Part shown: positions 8,412-57,442 of the stretch, one piece after another | How the letters are laid out: each line of letters begins with the position of its first letter | Numbering within the stretch: position 1 is the first letter of the stretch | NCBI GenBank assembly: GCA_963804505.1 | Contig: CAWDQP010000007.1 | Location: forward strand, 18,788 to 82,787 | Direction: 5' to 3' | Origin: an uncultured Thermoplasmata archaeon | GTDB taxonomy: Archaea; Thermoplasmatota; Thermoplasmata; Lutacidiplasmatales; UBA184 | DNA: 64,000 nucleotides | Notes under the pieces: model-generated | The model's database searches: none | What the model was told of the DNA's origin: nothing | Seen by the model: only the letters and a program-made list of their open reading frames with translations | Position numbers and translations under genes: made by a program

Positions 8412-11400
8412 CTAGAATCGCGATGGTCGGGACGGGTCAAGGACGCACCCGAGCGGAAGGAGTCCGAGCGGGACATCGCCAAGCAGCCCGTAGGGGGGCC
8501 CCTCGCTTCCGCCCTTCGTCCTGAACGTTACCGTCACGGAGGCTGTCGTGCCGGAGACCTTCGCCCGGGGGGAGATCCCGAGAACGCGTAGCCGGTCACC
8601 GGTCCGACCTTGTAGCTGTACGTCCCGTTCGGCAGGTAGAACACGATCGGCTCGCTCGTGTCATTCGACAGCGTCTTGCCCTTGATCGTGATCGACCACG
8701 TCCCGTTGGGGTGCCCTGCCTGCGTGAACGTCACCGCGTACGGGTAGACGAACGTGAACTTCAGAGTCTCCGCCTTCGCCACCGTGAGGTTCCCCGCCGT
8801 CGGTACAGCCATCGTTCCGACTTTCGCTACGACGGTCTCGCCGCTCAGGGGGGACCGCAGCGCGTAGCCGTACGTCCCCGGCGTGAGGTTCGCGTACGCA
8901 AGGGTCGCCTTCGTCGCGCACTGCTCGGCGCCGTCGACTTCCACGCACCAGGATTGGCCCTTCGGCAACCCCGACTCCCCGAACGTCAGGGCGACCGTCT
9001 TTTCTTTCGTGAACGCGACCGGGATCGACGTCGGCCCGGAGACGTTCCACGTCCCGGGTTCTTCGGTCGCATACCCGGACGGGCCCGTGATCAGGAGCGA
9101 GTCCGTTCCGTTCGGTGCTGCGAAGGTGATCTCCGGGTTCGTGGAGTGCCTCCGGGTCCCGTCCAGGTTGACCGCCCAACCGTGCGTCGAGAGCATCTTC
9201 GCCGGGATTCCACTCTCGGTGAACGTAACGTTCACCCCGGTCGGCCCGGCGATAGGGAGGATCGTCACGTTGCTGCCGTTGCTGTTGGCGACGAAGAGCT
9301 GGCTCGTTCCGGTATCGAAGACAACGGCAGCCGGTGCGCTCCCCGCGGGCAGGGTGGCCACGACCTTGTCGGTCCCGTCATAGATGGCGCTTACGTTGTT
9401 CGAGTTCCCGTTGGCGGTGTAGAGCTCGTCGTTCGCCGGGTCGTAGGCGATGCCGTCCGGGAACTCCCCCACGTCCACGGTGGCCACGACCTTGTCGGTG
9501 GAGTCGGAAATGACGCCGACGTGGTTGTCCGTGCCGTTGCTCTTCGAACCGGCGAAGAAGACCTGATTCGTGGCCGGATCGTAGGCGGCGGCGATGTTGA
9601 ACCCGGGGGCCGGGATCGTGGCCACGACCTTGTCCGTAGCGTCGGAGATGACGCTTACCGTGTTCGCGGACTCGCCCTTCGGCATGTCGTTGAAGACGAA
9701 CACGCGGTGCGTTCCCGGGTCGTAGACGGCCGCCTGCGGGGTGCTCCCGACGGGGATGGTCGCGACGACCTTGTCGGTCGCGTCCGAGATCACACTCACG
9801 TTGTTGCCGTTCGTGTCGGTGACGAAAAGCTGGTTCGTCCCCGAGTCGTAGACGATGCTCGAGGGCCAGGCACCGACGGGGATGTTCGCGACGACCTTGT
9901 TCGTAACGGCTGAGATGACGGTCACGTTGTTCGTGTTGAAGTTGGCCACGAACACCTCGGCCTTGGCAGAGTCGTATGCCATGTTCCAGGGGGAGCCCGC
10001 GCCGCAGTAGACGCCGCCGGCGTTCACCCAAGCGACGACCTGGTCGGTGGTGTCGTTGATCACACTGATGTTCCCCACCGTCCCCCCGCACTCGTCCGCG
10101 ACGAAGATCTCGCCCTGGGACGACGCGTACGCAAGTCCCCACGGGGCCGCTCCGACCGACACGGAGCGGTTAGAGACCTGTTGACGCATGGTGATCGCTA
10201 CGTTCACGTTCGCCCCCGAGACGTCCACGGTCCCGGCCGAAGGGAAGGGAGCGTAACCCTCGACCGAGAGATTCGCTCCTCCCACGGTGAACGAGTACGT
10301 TCCGTTGGCCTCCAAGAAGACGATCGAGGAACTTCGGCTCACCTCGGTGGAGGTGAAGTTGGAGGAGTTGGTGGAATTGTTCGAGTGCGAGACCAGCTTG
10401 ACCCCCCAACTGACCGCGGCGTACAGGCCCGTTTCGTTGAACGTGACGCGGTAGAAGCCGGTCGCAGCCATGAAGTTGACCGCTTGGGTTACCGGCGACC
10501 CGGCGACCGTCAGCGTCCCGGAGGTCGGCGTCGGCGTGTAGCTTGCCGCGTTGACCGTGAACGAATACGTCCCGTTCGGCACGTCGCCGAAGTTTACGCG
10601 GGCGGTCCCGTTGCTGGCCCCCTGAAGATTGAGGCCCCCTCCCCCGGAGAGCGCGGCCGACCAATTGGTCCCGTTCGTCAAGCCCGTCTCGACGAACGTC
10701 ACGGGGTAGCCGCCCTCAGAGGAGAAGGCGAAGCTGATCGACACGTTCACCGGCGTCCCGGTGAGGGTGAGCGTCCCGGATGAGGGGGTCGCGATGTAGT
10801 CGGGGGGCCGGGTCCCGAACGAGTAGGTGTAGCTCCCGTTCGGAATGTCGATGAACTCCTGAGCACTGCCGCTGCTACCGCTGCTGTACGCACCGGAAGG
10901 GGTTCCGTTCCCCGTCGGAGGCAGGGTGAGGTTCGCCCACCAGAAAGTCCCGACCGGCAGTCCGCTCTCGTTGAAGGTGACCGTGTTGACCAAGTGGAAC
11001 GACACGTTCACAGTGACCGGTCCCCCTTGGACCGAGAACGTTCCCTGCCGCGCCCCCCAATCCTGGTCGTACGGCTCGGGGGTGTAGTTGTAGGTCCCGT
11101 TCGGTTCGTCAAAGGCAATCGTATCGTTCGTGCTGCTGTACGACCCGGCCTGCCGGATGTACAGGACCCAGTAAGTCCCCGTCGGGAGTCCGGTCTCCCG
11201 GAACGTCACCCGTTGAGTGTTCGTGGGCGCACCGAAGACGATCGCCACTTCCGTGTCCGCTCCGGTCACGTTCACAACCCCGCGCGACGGCGTCGTCGAA
11301 CAAGCGGTCGCGCTCGCGTTGAACTCGAAGCTCCCGTTCGCCTGGTCGTAGAAGATCAGCGAGGACCCGTAGGAGGTTTCGCTGCTCCCGTTCATGGTCA

Positions 11401-43756: not shown

Positions 43757-43794
43757 CCCTCCGCAGGGCCGGCGGAGAGGTTTCTCAGCGCGTG

Positions 43795-43890
43795 CATTGC
43801 GTTCCCTTCGCGGGCATTATCCCGTGCAGGTTCCTGGGGTCGACGAGGCGAACCTCGTCCTCTCAGCCGGTTCCGAGCTCCCCCTGCATC
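43795..43890 (-). ncRNA. TPP (thi-box) riboswitch
   Basis: Minus strand reads GGGG..CTGAGA..ACCC..ACCTG..GGATAATGCCCGCGAAGGGA, the TPP consensus, directly upstream of the binding-protein gene. Confidence 0.93.
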
Positions 43891-43986
43891 CTACGTCAGA
43901 CGGGAGCGTGATAAAACGTCACGCGGACCCGGCGGGGCGTCCGGCTTATACTGACTCCGTGCCTAGCACACCCCGAGGGAACCACC

Positions 43987-52036: not shown

Positions 52037-52239
52037 GCTCGAGACGACCGGCTTTGAAACTTAACCTCGGCGGGAGGCGTTCATGAAACAGAACTGGACC
52101 TGCCTGAAACAAAACCTGATGCCCGGTCCGACCGAGCTTCTCTTAGAGGGACTACCCGAAACGAGAGGCAGCGTTTGGGATCACGCTCGGTTCTCGGGCC
52201 ACTCCAGTCAACGTCACGGCGAGGTGAACCGATTCGAAG

Positions 52240-52320
52240 GGTCCTGTTCCAATTCGCGAGGTCCGTCCCGGGCCTATCGGCGAGGCCGGCCTCCTCACCC
52301 CGCGAATCCGCAACAGAGCC
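52240..52320. repeat. 81-bp palindromic repeat, copy 1
   Basis: Identical to 53079-53159. Ends GGTCCTGTTCCAATTCGCG and CGCGAATCCGCAACAGAGCC form an imperfect inverted repeat. Confidence 0.95.
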
Positions 52321-52451
52321 AGATTCGGGTAAGTTTTTTGATACCGAAAACGAGATTACTCTTGGAATGGACTTCGCATCATTGGGCCTCGACTACGCTA
52401 TATCCGGAAAGATCTGGGACTAAATCGTCCGCGGTCGGCTCAGGTGTCAAG

Positions 52452-53006
52452 ATGGTCAGGTTTGAGCTGCAAGACTTTCAGCGACGGGTGTGGCGTGCGA
52501 CTCGATCGAACGTAACCCACCCCATGGGAATGACATTCGTTGTTCTGCTCGTGGGGTTCGGGGCGTACATCTCGTTTCGGAGCCTCGAAGCTGGCCAGTT
52601 TCCCACCACGCTTGTCAACCTCGGGCTGATTGGAGGCCTTGCCGTAATGGTTTATCTGTTGTTCGTTCTTCGGACGGCCGTTGGTCCCGAGTTTGTCGAT
52701 ATAGATAACCAGGGAGTGCGGTTTACGTTTAACTCGCACTCGGTTCACTCCTTCTGCTGGGACGATCCGGAATTCCGCCTCTGGCTCAGGTTCCTAACTG
52801 ACAACAGACTGCCAGGACCCGATCAGGATGTCTGCTGGATTTGGGGTCGTGGTCTCTGGCCGAAAACTCTGCCGGTTCCAGTTCCTGTGGCTGAACGGAT
52901 GCTAGCGGAAGCCAAAGCAAACCGACTCGAAGTACATTCAAAGTACCCCGGCAGCGGACCATCGGGTGGAATCGGGATGTACCAGCTTCGTGCTCCCAGT
53001 CATTAA
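52452..53006 (+). CDS. Two-TM membrane protein with a PH-like soluble domain (transposon cargo)
   Basis: AGGTG RBS-like sequence before the ATG, two hydrophobic helices, then VDIDNQGVRF..FCWDD. Confidence 0.65.
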   Translation: MVRFELQDFQRRVWRATRSNVTHPMGMTFVVLLVGFGAYISFRSLEAGQFPTTLVNLGLIGGLAVMVYLLFVLRTAVGPEFVDIDNQGVRFTFNSHSVHSFCWDDPEFRLWLRFLTDNRLPGPDQDVCWIWGRGLWPKTLPVPVPVAERMLAEAKANRLEVHSKYPGSGPSGGIGMYQLRAPSH

Positions 53007-53078
53007 AGCTTGTATGATGAGGATTAAGTGACAGCAACCGAAAGTCTTACGATAGAAGTGCGATTCGGACCGAAGAGC

Positions 53079-53159
53079 GGTCCTGTTCCAATTCGCGAGG
53101 TCCGTCCCGGGCCTATCGGCGAGGCCGGCCTCCTCACCCCGCGAATCCGCAACAGAGCC
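53079..53159. repeat. 81-bp palindromic repeat, copy 2 (direct orientation)
   Basis: Identical to 52240-52320. Confidence 0.95.
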
Positions 53160-53208
53160 GTCCGTAGGGAGGATCCTTCTATGAGAAAGCACGACGGCCG
53201 AAGAATCG

Positions 53209-53403
53209 TCAGTCTCGCTTAGACGACTTTGGTTTGGGCCCGACCGATACGGTCACCCGCAACGAGCCAGGCTCGACCTCCCAAACTAAGGTAGAGCCGG
53301 GGACAGCGCCGAGAATCGCAGCGACCGCCTCAGGGACGGTCGCCCGGACAGATGGGGACCCGGGAACAGTCCGGAGGACTTTGGACGTGAACTTGCTGAC
53401 CAT
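53209..53403 (-). CDS. AbrB/MazE/SpoVT-like small DNA-binding protein
   Basis: SVRATVPEAVAAILGAVPGSTLVWEV fits the swapped-hairpin pattern. Divergent from the transposase. Confidence 0.65.
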   Translation of the reverse strand: MVSKFTSKVLRTVPGSPSVRATVPEAVAAILGAVPGSTLVWEVEPGSLRVTVSVGPKPKSSKRD

Positions 53404-53527
53404 GCCGCCGCTCGGTGAGGCACACCCCTACAGGAATAAATGCGTTGGCTATCACATACGCCAATACATTGGCCTTAAGTACTCTCGAACTATAGGGCAA
53501 TACAGTAGCCAATATCGGGGGCAAACA

Positions 53528-54763
53528 ATGGAGCAAGATGCGATGACAGCACCTCGGGACAACCGATCGGTGCAGGCGAAGGAGATCGCCTCGCGTCGAG
53601 ATGAGATTGAGCCCCTGGGTGAGAACGACTGGTCGATTCCTTCACAATCAGGCTTCGGGCGGTACCGAGTCAATCTGCGCGAAGGAGGGTGGGTCTGCGG
53701 CTGCCAAGACTTTGCGAAGCGCGGCCTGCCGTGTAAACACATTCTCGCCGTGCTGGAGCTGAGCCGCCCGACGCCGCCGATCGCCCCCGCCCCCCGGAAG
53801 CAGTACCGCCAGCACCCCACTTACACGAAGGGCCAGACGGCCGAGATGCGGCTCCTCAACGAACTCCTCCGAGATCTCGTAAGGGAAGTTCCTGATTTTC
53901 CTGCGACGCCGGGGGTCGGGGGTCGGCCAGCCCTCCCACTTTCTGAGAGCCTTTACTGCGCGATTCTCAAGGTCTACTCCGGTCTCTCGGGACGGCGCGC
54001 GTGTGGGGTCTACGAAAACGTACACGACCGGGAGTTGCTCAGCCGAGTTCCGAACTACATGGTCGCTTCCCGCGCCCTCAACCGACCCGAAGTAACGTCG
54101 ATCCTCTACCGCCTTCTCTCGCTCTCCGCAGCCCCGCTCGCCGGACTTGAAGACGGGGGAGTTGTCGCGCCTGATTCGACCGGCGTTCAGACGACTTCCT
54201 TCGGAAGCTGGCGAGAAGAGAAGCACGGTGAGAAACGCCAGAAGATGTGGCTCAAGGTTCACGCGCTGGTCGGGACCAAGACCCATGTGATCATACGAGC
54301 ATTCGTGGGCGGGGCAGACTCGAATGATTCGCCGTTCTTCATCCCTCTCCTTCGCGACAGCCTCGGGTCCGGCTTCCGACCCTCGGCTGTCGTGGCAGAC
54401 AAGGGGTATCTCTCGAAGGACAACTACCGAGTCGCTTCAGAGCTGGGACTCGACGCGTACATCCCATTCAAGTCGAACTCGGTGAACCGGTCGGGTACCC
54501 ATGGGAGCCCACCATCTTGGCGGAAGGCGTTCTACATGTTCCAGGCCAACCGGGACGTATTCGAACAGAGTTACCACCGCCGGTCGAACGTCGAATCCGT
54601 CTTCTCGGCGCTCAAGCGAAAATTCGGGGAGAACATCCGCTCCCGAACCCACGTAGCTCAGGTAAACGAAATCCTCTGCAAGCTGATCGCGTACAACCTC
54701 ACGGTGGTCGTCCATGAGATGTTCGAGAACGGGATCGTCCCCGTCTTCTCAGTTGAGAGTTAA
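53528..54763 (+). CDS. Transposase: N-terminal SWIM Zn finger plus an IS4/IS5-superfamily DDE domain
   Basis: CGCQDF..PCKH (SWIM), PDSTG, WLKVH, ADKGY, YHRRSNVESVFSALKRKFG (Y-2-R-3-E-6-K signature). Confidence 0.9.
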   Translation: MEQDAMTAPRDNRSVQAKEIASRRDEIEPLGENDWSIPSQSGFGRYRVNLREGGWVCGCQDFAKRGLPCKHILAVLELSRPTPPIAPAPRKQYRQHPTYTKGQTAEMRLLNELLRDLVREVPDFPATPGVGGRPALPLSESLYCAILKVYSGLSGRRACGVYENVHDRELLSRVPNYMVASRALNRPEVTSILYRLLSLSAAPLAGLEDGGVVAPDSTGVQTTSFGSWREEKHGEKRQKMWLKVHALVGTKTHVIIRAFVGGADSNDSPFFIPLLRDSLGSGFRPSAVVADKGYLSKDNYRVASELGLDAYIPFKSNSVNRSGTHGSPPSWRKAFYMFQANRDVFEQSYHRRSNVESVFSALKRKFGENIRSRTHVAQVNEILCKLIAYNLTVVVHEMFENGIVPVFSVES

Positions 54764-55770
54764 GATGTCGTTCGCGGGCCGGGCGGTGAACCGCTAGGGG
54801 GCACGCCCAATGGGGGCGGCGTCGGGCCCCCCCTTGGGACAGGCGGCGTTGGCTGCGGTTGCCCGGCAGATGGCATCTGCATAAGTTGAACGGCCATGTT
54901 CGCCGAGGTTTCGGAAGTCTCGAACAGCTTCGCGATGGCAGGATTCGACATGAATGCAGGAATCGTCCTGAGGTAGTACTCCCAGACGAGTGACCACCGT
55001 TCATCGTCGTGGGGCCAGAAGTCCACGTTGAGTTTCAACGCTGTCGTTGCATCCTCTCTATTGATTACGCTGCCGTGAAGCCCGTACCGACCGCCCGCGA
55101 CGAGTTGACTAACCGTGTTCGCAACGTCAGCAGGGGGACGGCCGTTCATCGCTCCAACGGGCAACCAACGCCGAGCAAAATCCTCGGAAAACTGAATCAG
55201 GTCGACGCACATTCCAATCATCTGTGGGGATAGCTGCTGTAGGACAGGGAAGTAGATCTGAATCGAAGAAGGATCAGCCCTCACCTTCTCGCGGATGATG
55301 TTGATCGCGTTGAGGTAGGCTCGCGCCGGAATCAACTGAGGCTGTCCAGCGGGGCCGACGGATTGAATCTGAGGGTCGATGGGCCCCAGTTCTGAGGCTT
55401 CCCCCATTACGATTCTGTCCGCTCCAAGTGACAGCATCGTTGCAGCACTCTTCGCGGATTGCGGCACGATGACTGAAAATCCCTCAGGGAACGCAGTCCG
55501 GCAGATTTGGATAATCTTCTCAGCGGTGTGGCCGTCGCCACCAGGGCTTTGGACCATCAGATAGACCTTCTTGCCGCGCTTCCTTGCCACATTGAGCATG
55601 TCTAGGACGAGCGGAACGTCCTGCGGAATCAACGACGACAACGGGTGAAGTGGGCTCGCGATGTATGTGGCGACTGGGGCGCCGAGTTTTTCTTCGAGTT
55701 TTTTCAGGATTGCCTGTCGCTTCTTGGCCCACCCCGGCGGTTTTGTTTCCTCAATAATGCTGTTGAACAT
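54760..55770 (-). CDS. SDH-family ClpP-fold serine protease (transposon cargo)
   Basis: QSPGGD...EKI, IVPQSAKSAATMLSLGADRI.MG..SELGPIDPQ, LHG. Pro-rich tail. Confidence 0.85.
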   Translation of the reverse strand: MFNSIIEETKPPGWAKKRQAILKKLEEKLGAPVATYIASPLHPLSSLIPQDVPLVLDMLNVARKRGKKVYLMVQSPGGDGHTAEKIIQICRTAFPEGFSVIVPQSAKSAATMLSLGADRIVMGEASELGPIDPQIQSVGPAGQPQLIPARAYLNAINIIREKVRADPSSIQIYFPVLQQLSPQMIGMCVDLIQFSEDFARRWLPVGAMNGRPPADVANTVSQLVAGGRYGLHGSVINREDATTALKLNVDFWPHDDERWSLVWEYYLRTIPAFMSNPAIAKLFETSETSANMAVQLMQMPSAGQPQPTPPVPRGGPTPPPLGVPPSGSPPGPRTTS

Positions 55771-55821
55771 ACGGCGACTCCCTGCCGCGATGTAAGAAAG
55801 GTCTCACTTAGATGAGTCGGG

Positions 55822-55977
55822 CTAGTTTGTTTCGTAGGTAATCGAGACACCAATAATGGCAGGGGCCGGCTGGGGTGGAATGATTCTCAGTAACTCAGCC
55901 AAATCAGTATTCTCACTGATTGCACGACGGAGCATCTCATCCACGATGCGGGCGAGCTCCTCGGCGCTTTCCGCCAC
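55822..55977 (-). CDS. Small (51-aa) hypothetical protein upstream of the protease
   Basis: GTG start, then helical AESAEELARIVDEMLRRAISEN and a PPQPAP..TYETN tail. Co-oriented, 52 bp upstream of the protease. Confidence 0.45.
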   Translation of the reverse strand: MAESAEELARIVDEMLRRAISENTDLAELLRIIPPQPAPAIIGVSITYETN

Positions 55978-56294
55978 AGGTGAGCCTTGAGGGCAAGCGC
56001 TAACGAAAAGGCTTGCGCCCTGACTTTCCTTATCCCTTGCTGCCTGCAAGAAGAGGGTAGGGCGAACGCCCCTTACTCGGGTCTGAGATTGAAACCGGAT
56101 TGGCGAGGCTGAAAACAGATGACCGAGTAAAGGTCGATCCCATCTTACCGTCGGTAGAACCGAGACCGGACTTATCTGAAACAGAACTCGACCGCGTGAA
56201 ACTAAACCCGCCCGGCCGAGGATGTTAAGTTTCAAAGCCGAGACGACCCAAGCCGTGATATAGCGGGTGCCCGTGGCACGCCGCCTTCCTCCTA

Positions 56295-57442
56295 ATGCCC
56301 GATTTCTCCCTCTCGCCCGAGCACGAGAGCCTCCGGGACATGGCCCGGAAATTTGCCCGGACGGAGATGGTCCCGCACGCGGCGGAATGCGACCGGACGG
56401 CCCGTTTTCCGGAAGAGATCTATCGCAAGGCCCACGCCCTGGGCCTAATGAACCTCAACGTACCGGCGGAGTGGGGCGGTAGCGGGCTCTCGCTGTTCGA
56501 GCAATGCCTGATCGTCGAGGAACTTGCCTACGCCTGCGGCGGCATGACGACCTCGATCATCGCCAACTGCCTCGCGCTCGAGCCGATCCTGCTCGGGGCC
56601 ACGCCCGAGCAAAAGAAGCGTTTCCTACCTTCGTTCTGCGCGGACTATCACCTGGCGTCGTTCTGCCTGACCGAACCCGGAGGGGGAGCGACGCGGGCGC
56701 GATCCGCACCCGCGCCCGGAAGGACGGGGACGAGTACATCCTGGACGGCGAGAAGTGCTTCATCACCAACGCCCCCCACGCGTCGCTCTACACCGTGTTC
56801 GCGACGCTCGACCCGCAGCAACGCCACCGGGGGATCAGCGCGTTCGTGGTGCCGCGCTCGGCGAAGGGCCTATCCCCGGGCAAGGACGAGGAGAAGATGG
56901 GCCATCGCGCCTCGTCGACCAGCACGGTTCGCTTCGAGGGCGTGCGTGTTCCAGCCGCCGACCGATTGGGCGAGGAGGGGGAGGGGTTCTCGCTCGCGAT
57001 GCGGACCCTCGACATGACCCGCACCCCGATCGGTGCTTTGGCCACGGGCATCGCCCAGGCGGCGCTCGACCACGCGGCGCGCTACGCCCTGAAGCGCGAG
57101 ACCTTCGGCAAGCCGATCGCCGAGCATCAAGCGATCCAGATCAAGCTCGCCAACATGGCCCAGGCGGTACACGCGGCGCGCCTCCTGAGCTGGCACGCCG
57201 CCTGGACCATCGACGGCGGCCAGAAGGGGACGCTCGAATCGTCCATCGCGAAGTGCTTCGCTTCGGACGCGGCGCTCCACGTGGCCGACGAGGCGATCCA
57301 GACCTTCGGCGGGTACGGCTACATGAAGGAGTACCCGGTCGAGAAGCTCCTGCGGGATGCGAAGCTCACCCAGATCTACGAAGGGGCGAACGAGATCCAG
57401 CGCACCGTGATCGCCCGCGAGCTGCTCCGTGGCTACTCCTAG
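56295..57442 (+). CDS. Acyl-CoA dehydrogenase (frameshift ~56685)
   Basis: [40 protein letters not shown]. Confidence 0.95.

Follow-up and report, generated by a model that had tools for sequence, protein, structure and literature searches.

Units bounded by the insertion sequence IS26 dominate the spread of resistance genes. The inverted repeats of the IS6 family carry a signature of GG tips, a G at position 7 and the motif CTGTT (PMC7986276, PMC6807381), and IS6 elements are often found without duplications after cointegrate or conservative routes (PMC7986276). The family membership of archaeal elements named "IS6" is disputed (PMC6807381). ISfinder also lists two MITEs of this family, MITEBth2 and MITEHarch3, which are 227 and 336 bp long and have both IS6-type ends but no ORF (PMC6807381, PMC7986276). 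One of the two has an archaeal name, and cargo bracketing is described for neither in the passages concerned.

Composites bounded by MITEs are already documented with Tn3-derived MITEs on bacterial plasmids. In these TIME-COMPs, two such MITEs in direct or inverted orientation mobilize the DNA between them with a transposase supplied in trans, and it has been proposed that a circle made of one MITE plus a gene integrates at a resident MITE (PMC13367494). They have Tn3-type inverted repeats, 5-bp duplications, lengths of 209-256 bp and resistance genes as cargo (PMC13367494).

Here, we describe two direct 81-bp repeats on either side of a 758-bp segment in the 64,000-nucleotide stretch of archaeal DNA that was analysed (the window). 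We consider it likely, with a probability of roughly 0.7, that the three parts together are a 920-bp IS6-type MITE-bounded pseudo-compound transposon that was moved in trans. The arrangement resembles the IS26/IS6 pseudo-compound transposons and translocatable units in that direct copies with GG...CTGTT ends surround a cargo. It differs in that the flanking copies are 81-bp MITEs without a transposase rather than insertion sequences of roughly 800 bp, and in the archaeal host, the 8-9-bp duplications and the putative helper enzymes with SWIM/zinc-binding N-termini. Compared by description only, the 81-mer has roughly one third the length of the two ISfinder MITEs. The TIME-COMPs have the features listed above, whereas IS6-type ends, a 9-bp duplication, a length of 81 bp and a location in an archaeal chromosome or transposon are found here. 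Membership among the TIME-COMPs was rejected on the IS6-type ends and the 9-bp duplication in a sister unit, as judged by their description.

The repeat pair, its cargo and the enclosing transposon

A repeat search recovered exactly two 81-nt direct repeats in the window, at 52240-52320 and 53079-53159, with 100% identity and a start-to-start distance of 839. They lie inside a larger transposon, and the features of the region are the following.

52041..52049, no strand: left target-site duplication of the enclosing transposon, 9 bp, GAGACGACC
52050..52065, plus strand: left terminal inverted repeat of the enclosing transposon (52050-56239), 16 bp, GGCTTTGAAACTTAAC
52240..52320, plus strand: copy 1 of the putative MITE, composed of two fused inverted repeats of IS6 type, 5' GGTCCTGTTCC..., 3' ...GCAACAGAGCC, according to the family alignment and the inverted-repeat comparison
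52321..53078, plus strand: cargo segment, 758 bp, 53.3% GC, without a DNA homologue in 149 congeneric genomes
52452..53006, plus strand: cargo gene, 184 aa, two hydrophobic (TM-like) segments, without known family
53079..53159, plus strand: copy 2 of the putative MITE, identical to copy 1 and in the same orientation
53234..54763, plus strand: transposase with SWIM zinc finger and DDE_Tnp_1 domain, homologues in 34 of 149 congeneric genomes
54760..55770, minus strand: passenger gene of the enclosing transposon, ClpP-like SDH-type serine protease
55822..56235, minus strand: passenger ORF, 137 aa, without family match
56224..56239, minus strand: right terminal inverted repeat, perfect reverse complement of the left repeat
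56240..56248, no strand: right target-site duplication, 9 bp, GAGACGACC, perfect match to the left copy

The tips of the 81-mers, read inward, are GGTCCTGTTCC on the left and GGCTCTGTTGC on the right, and each 81-mer is predicted to fold into an imperfect hairpin (-33.6 kcal/mol, z -2.55). The bases outside the 81-mers differ between the two copies on both sides, and thus the duplicated segment is exactly the 81-mer and stops at the element ends. Such an exact duplication cannot have originated by chance. The GC content is 69.1% in the 81-mer and about 70% in the adjoining chromosome, as compared to 53.3% in the cargo. The sole ORF between the repeats encodes the 184-aa protein, with hydrophobic stretches at about residues 24-45 and 51-82. 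No family match to this protein was obtained in Pfam, NCBIfam or PADLOC, and a search of 5.8 billion proteins returned only the protein itself as a homologue; weak relatives (24-38% identity) were present in 25 of the 149 congeneric genomes.

A comparison of the flanks identified no target-site duplication around copy 1, copy 2 or the pair. The left flank of copy 1 and the right flank of copy 2 agree at 5/8 positions in a test for an 8-nt duplication, which is not significant. Two partial similarities, the motif GATTCG near three junctions and a 6/10 match in register around copy 1, were likewise dismissed as non-significant or wrong in length. The preliminary description had reported two identical direct copies 839 bp apart with these inward-reading ends and an imperfect hairpin in each copy, one enclosed lower-GC gene for a membrane protein and no duplication at either copy, and all of this was recovered in our analysis.

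The same description had named an assembly artefact as a finding that would speak against a mobile unit. The assembly does contain single-base indel errors relative to short-read contigs, which have one base fewer at 52122 and at 52186 and, in three of four runs, an extra G after 56681. However, three of the four repeat junctions (left flank/copy 1, cargo/copy 2 and copy 2/right flank) are confirmed by independent short-read contigs of the four runs, which makes an artefact unlikely. Furthermore, the duplicated segment stops exactly at the tips defined by the family, whereas an arbitrary duplication would not. We therefore regard an assembly error or a trivial tandem duplication as extremely improbable.

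The acyl-CoA dehydrogenase gene to the right of the transposon (56295-57442) is split into two overlapping frames, 56295-57017 and 56504-57442. The extra G after 56681 would probably restore a single frame, so that an assembly indel is likely here rather than a pseudogene. Elsewhere in the window, a TPP riboswitch was identified at Rfam gathering level at 43785-43894 on the minus strand (55.4 bits).

The 920-bp unit is nested in a discrete transposon of 4,190 bp, a low-GC island with 55-60% GC against 70-74% in the surroundings, and the perfect terminal repeats and duplications show that this transposon itself was inserted with a 9-bp duplication. The best NCBIfam match to its transposase is the IS5 family with 128 bits, which is below the cut-off of 140, and the real start codon may be an ATG near 53534. 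Only the transposase part is common to relatives among the 149 congeneric genomes, where neither the 81-mers nor the other cargo of this transposon were found alongside related transposases. No terminal repeats could be delimited around these relatives. The ends of the transposon bear no resemblance to the ends of the 81-mer. A 13/16 match to the terminal repeat at 55027-55042 is located inside the protease gene and was taken as chance.

The genome also contains a second transposase (L020, G000:C11:68636-72832) that is 65% identical to the SWIM-DDE enzyme in the window. One similar terminal repeat, GGCTTTGAAAATTAAT, lies 48 bp past its stop codon, and a second one was not found within 4.2 kb. 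This element may also carry cargo, or it may be truncated.

The 81-mer family and its IS6-type ends

The preliminary description had asked whether the 81-mer occurs elsewhere, since a repeat confined to these two copies, with no circle or deletion reads and no cognate enzyme, would have spoken against it. A third, solo copy with 81% identity is present outside the window in the same genome (C7:136787-136865). Homologues were searched for in 150 genomes of the Thermoplasmata genus with BLAST and with a covariance model built from five members. At E <= 0.01, matches were obtained in 19 of the 150 genomes before reading, and 5 genomes were kept; the weak covariance-model matches in the 14 further genomes look like coding sequence. 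As judged by reading the matches, there are 10 convincing copies in the 5 genomes: the three described above, two in G002, one in G030, one in G123, and two in G111 along with one 5'-degenerate copy there (G111:C7), which was counted despite its weak covariance-model match. The 81-mer is thus a dispersed family of low copy number, with members in four other genomes besides this one.

Public sequences were scanned with a degenerate pattern for the conserved stem and the 3' end. The scan of genome contigs gave 14 loci, of which 4, from two Thermoplasmata MAGs, are true and 10 are bacterial loci that were negative with the covariance model. In metagenome contigs, 19 loci were found, and the two weak covariance-model matches among them (22.2 and 15.6 bits) were unconvincing. 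Since the public scans add nothing convincing, the family appears to be rare outside a few MAGs.

The family alignment shows conservation of both termini and of an inner 9-bp stem (TTCGCGGGG / CCCCGCGAA) around a variable middle, and homology among the copies ends at the GG...CC tips. The copies are located at intergenic sites that are unrelated to each other and share neither a neighbour nor an orientation, and no target duplication was seen around any of the solo copies examined. The hexamer GGAGGA is found about 8 nt beyond the 3' tip in three copies (window copy 2, G002 C2 and G111a), and GGACCGAAG on the 5' side is common to window copy 2 and G111a. Together with the reverse complement of the G002 duplication described below (GGCCCGAAA), these recurring motifs may point to target sites favoured by the transposase; alternatively, the element could be slightly longer than 81 bp. 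The solo copy in the genome studied here (L003, G000:C7, about 54 kb beyond the window) is situated just upstream of a 38-codon ORF, which is followed by an ATP-grasp-like gene of 357 aa, and the genes at L003:1630-2895 could constitute a small modified-peptide locus.

Another explanation would take the 81-mer for a structured RNA or regulatory hairpin, such as a small RNA, a terminator or a leader, that was duplicated with its neighbour. The predicted hairpin is stable, copy 1 in the window, the L003 copy and G002 C2 immediately precede a gene read in the same direction, and some two-sided changes occur in helix 3. However, other copies are located between convergent genes or on the strand opposite to their neighbours, and the conserved parts are termini of the type bound by proteins. 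Furthermore, no Rfam family matched at gathering level (the best was sR45, with 23.8 bits against a cut-off of 40), and a weak consensus structure was obtained for 9 members (-9.3 kcal/mol), with an unfavourable covariation term. The covariation score was reached in 9/500 shuffles, which is within the range reported for unconstrained alignments, and all copies have a mismatch at position 4 of the outer stem. An RNA or regulatory function is accordingly a very unlikely reading of the repeat.

A mobile element is suggested by the ends, and here the claim in the preliminary description that they are IS6-like holds. At both ends, the 81-mer has GG tips, CTGTT and a G at position 7; it lacks the "caaa" motif of the IS6 consensus. 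In a profile search, the IS6-family transposase domain PF13610 was detected in 44 of the 149 congeneric genomes, and the ends resemble the inverted repeats of the IS6-family elements in such genomes. The resemblance spans about 24 nt: at the right end of the G030 and G166 elements, the inverted repeat agrees with the 3' repeat of the MITE at 19/24 positions, tip to tip. As a control, the G030 and G166 repeats were searched against both strands of the whole 1.85-Mb genome. With the G030 repeat as the query, the two MITE tips were the two best matches genome-wide, with 5 mismatches each, and with the G166 repeat they were joint best together with one match in coding sequence that we attribute to chance. 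An IS6-like end at C10:290051 was set aside as a coincidence within coding sequence. Taken together, the signature, the matching repeats in relatives and the genome-wide control lead us to conclude that the 81-mer is most plausibly an IS6-type MITE made of two inverted repeats fused back to back. Each copy would comprise two terminal inverted repeats of about 25-30 nt joined by a short variable linker and would have no gene of its own, and indeed the 81-mer contains no ORF.

Transposases with similar ends, a search for which had been suggested as a further test, were found in relatives: neither a PF13610 transposase nor other IS6-type ends were found in the assembly of the window, which has a completeness score of 58%. 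The similarity between the inverted repeats of the 81-mer and those of full-length elements is 65-80%, which falls short of identity, and for this reason no single cognate partner can be pinned down.

Two of the full-length elements, of the same architecture, were delimited. The ends of the G002 element (L078:572-2653) are GGTACTGTTG..., and it is flanked by a 9-bp duplication, TTTCGGGCC, the reverse complement of which is GGCCCGAAA. Its transposase, a 495-aa ORF with SWIM and IS240 DDE domains, passes the NCBIfam model NF033587 "IS6 family transposase" with 132.9 bits (cut-off 125). The G148 element (approximately L086:565-2659) is bounded by GGTTCTGTTCAATCTCGGGAGAT and GGAATCTGTTCAGTCATCGGGAGAT, and its duplication, CTTGGACC, is 8 bp long.

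Some further observations were made on these elements. In front of the G002 element (G002:C2), its right end occurs once more, along with the 9-bp target sequence (L078:541-571 and 2631-2662), giving a 31-bp direct repeat, as if it had been inserted beside a solo end. Near-identical IS6-type right ends were observed at L154:1006-4210 (G030:C5) and L155:2129-3765 (G166:C1). The one in G166 appears to adjoin ftsZ, and in G030 the sequence flanking the end on its outer side is similar. A gene for a 325-aa membrane protein is located in G030 between the IS6-type right end and the transposase, and the full-length elements of the G030/G166 group may therefore carry passengers too. With about 400-500 aa, the IS6-family transposases of the genus are long, and their N-terminal parts are of the SWIM and IS1-like zinc-binding types (L078:583-2070; L155:2129-3742). 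Such N-terminal extensions are described mainly for clostridial clades (PMC7986276).

A sister unit and the probable origin of the window unit

A second bracketed unit was identified in G111, where two direct copies with 85% similarity, at L055:5411-5491 and 9433-9513, mark the exact limits of a 3.9-kb low-GC island (0.59-0.64 versus 0.70-0.75). The island lacks a transposase, and its two genes are paralogues that encode secreted or membrane-anchored proteins. As in the window, the cargo is low in GC and the MITE has a host-like GC content. The perfect 9-mer GCCTTCGGT is present directly outside the unit on both sides (L055:5402-5410 and 9514-9522), and there is no duplication around either single copy. 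Since the unit as a whole, and neither copy by itself, is flanked by a 9-bp duplication, the repeats and their cargo must have been inserted in one event, and judging from this pattern such MITE-bounded units do transpose. The insertion fits composite transposition or IS6-type cointegrate formation, and the duplication has the same size, 9 bp, as that of the full-length element in G002. For a comparison with an empty site, the sole usable orthologous locus, in G116, is missing the neighbouring gene as well as the unit, and the comparison is hence not clean.

The sister unit also bears on the possibility that two MITEs were inserted independently around a gene that was already in the transposon, so that the pair never moved together and is not a unit. 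The 81-mer is indeed a dispersed MITE, and no direct trace of joint movement was seen at the window pair. On the other hand, no target duplication flanks either window copy individually, the pair shows 100% identity as compared to 81% for the third copy in the genome, the GC content of the cargo (53%) is lower than that of the rest of the transposon (58%), and the pair in G111 shares one duplication. We consider two separate insertions unlikely.

The preliminary description had interpreted the locus either as a MITE-scale translocatable unit or as a repeat-gene-repeat cassette system that loads genes into the larger transposon. The first part, an IS6-like unit of MITE scale, fits our results, and the second found no support. 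In integron cassettes, imperfect palindromic attC repeats of similar length, with the terminal order AAC...GTT, separate single genes. Likewise, the 81-mers are imperfect palindromes of attC-like length around a single promoter-proximal gene, and they might be recombination sites at which the gene was inserted or excised by a site-specific recombinase. However, the order of the terminal motifs is the opposite, with GTT...AAC in the 81-mer, and no integrase is encoded nearby: the only tyrosine recombinase of the genome (PF00589) is located on another contig, at C10:390700, and there is none in the transposon. Arrays with varying intervening genes, for which the preliminary description had proposed to look, were not found; no locus in the 150 genus genomes or the two public scans has more than two copies, and the units in the window and in G111 are the only bracketed ones found anywhere. 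Finally, the 9-bp duplication in G111 is the mark of DDE transposition, unlike site-specific exchange. A cassette system is thus a highly improbable explanation.

We return to the MITE-bounded unit. The 920-bp segment would be a transposase-less counterpart of an IS26-bounded unit with one foreign gene aboard, and its movement would require an IS6-family transposase supplied in trans; the helper enzyme in the genus would be the long form with the N-terminal SWIM/zinc-binding extension. The duplication around the whole unit in G111 and its absence in the window are reminiscent of the copy-in and the targeted conservative routes of IS26 (PMC7986276). The absence of a duplication at the window unit matches the routes by which a circle joins a resident copy, as outlined for IS26 and for the Tn3-derived MITEs (PMC7986276; PMC13367494). 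As the window unit has no duplication, its most likely origin would be a circle, consisting of one MITE and the gene, that recombined with a MITE copy which the transposon harboured before. The recombination could have been homologous, or targeted and conservative as in IS26, and a new copy-in event would be less likely. Against this reading stands the lack of a duplication at the unit and at its copies, and transposition of the window unit itself is therefore putative. No joints diagnostic of a circle or of a single-repeat form were seen in the contigs of the four runs, which come from one study, have a depth of 3-6 and break at the 81-mer, such that rare forms would be invisible.

Probable MITE-bounded cargo in an archaeon

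No report of an IS6-type MITE-bounded unit was found in the library of papers that was searched. What is new is the combination of an 81-bp IS6-type MITE, an archaeal host and the bracketing of foreign DNA, once nested in another transposon. The logic of the IS26 units and of the MITE composites is now seen in an uncultured soil Thermoplasmata archaeon, in a family in which foreign low-GC DNA is bracketed by the 81-mer in two genomes, and in one of them inside another transposon.

One tentative hypothesis, which we consider possible but doubtful, is that the 81-mer forms a minimal archaeal version of the IS26 translocatable units, in which an 839-bp circle of one MITE and the gene, without a transposase, is excised and reinserted at other MITE copies by the SWIM-containing IS6 transposase acting in trans. 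The scattered MITEs would then serve as docking sites through which foreign low-GC genes are loaded into the chromosome and even other transposons. If so, this would represent a route for gene capture made only of paired, fused inverted repeats. More generally, if mobilization in trans holds, a pair of fused inverted repeats would suffice to mobilize arbitrary genes in archaea, and the disputed archaeal "IS6" elements would act like their bacterial namesakes.
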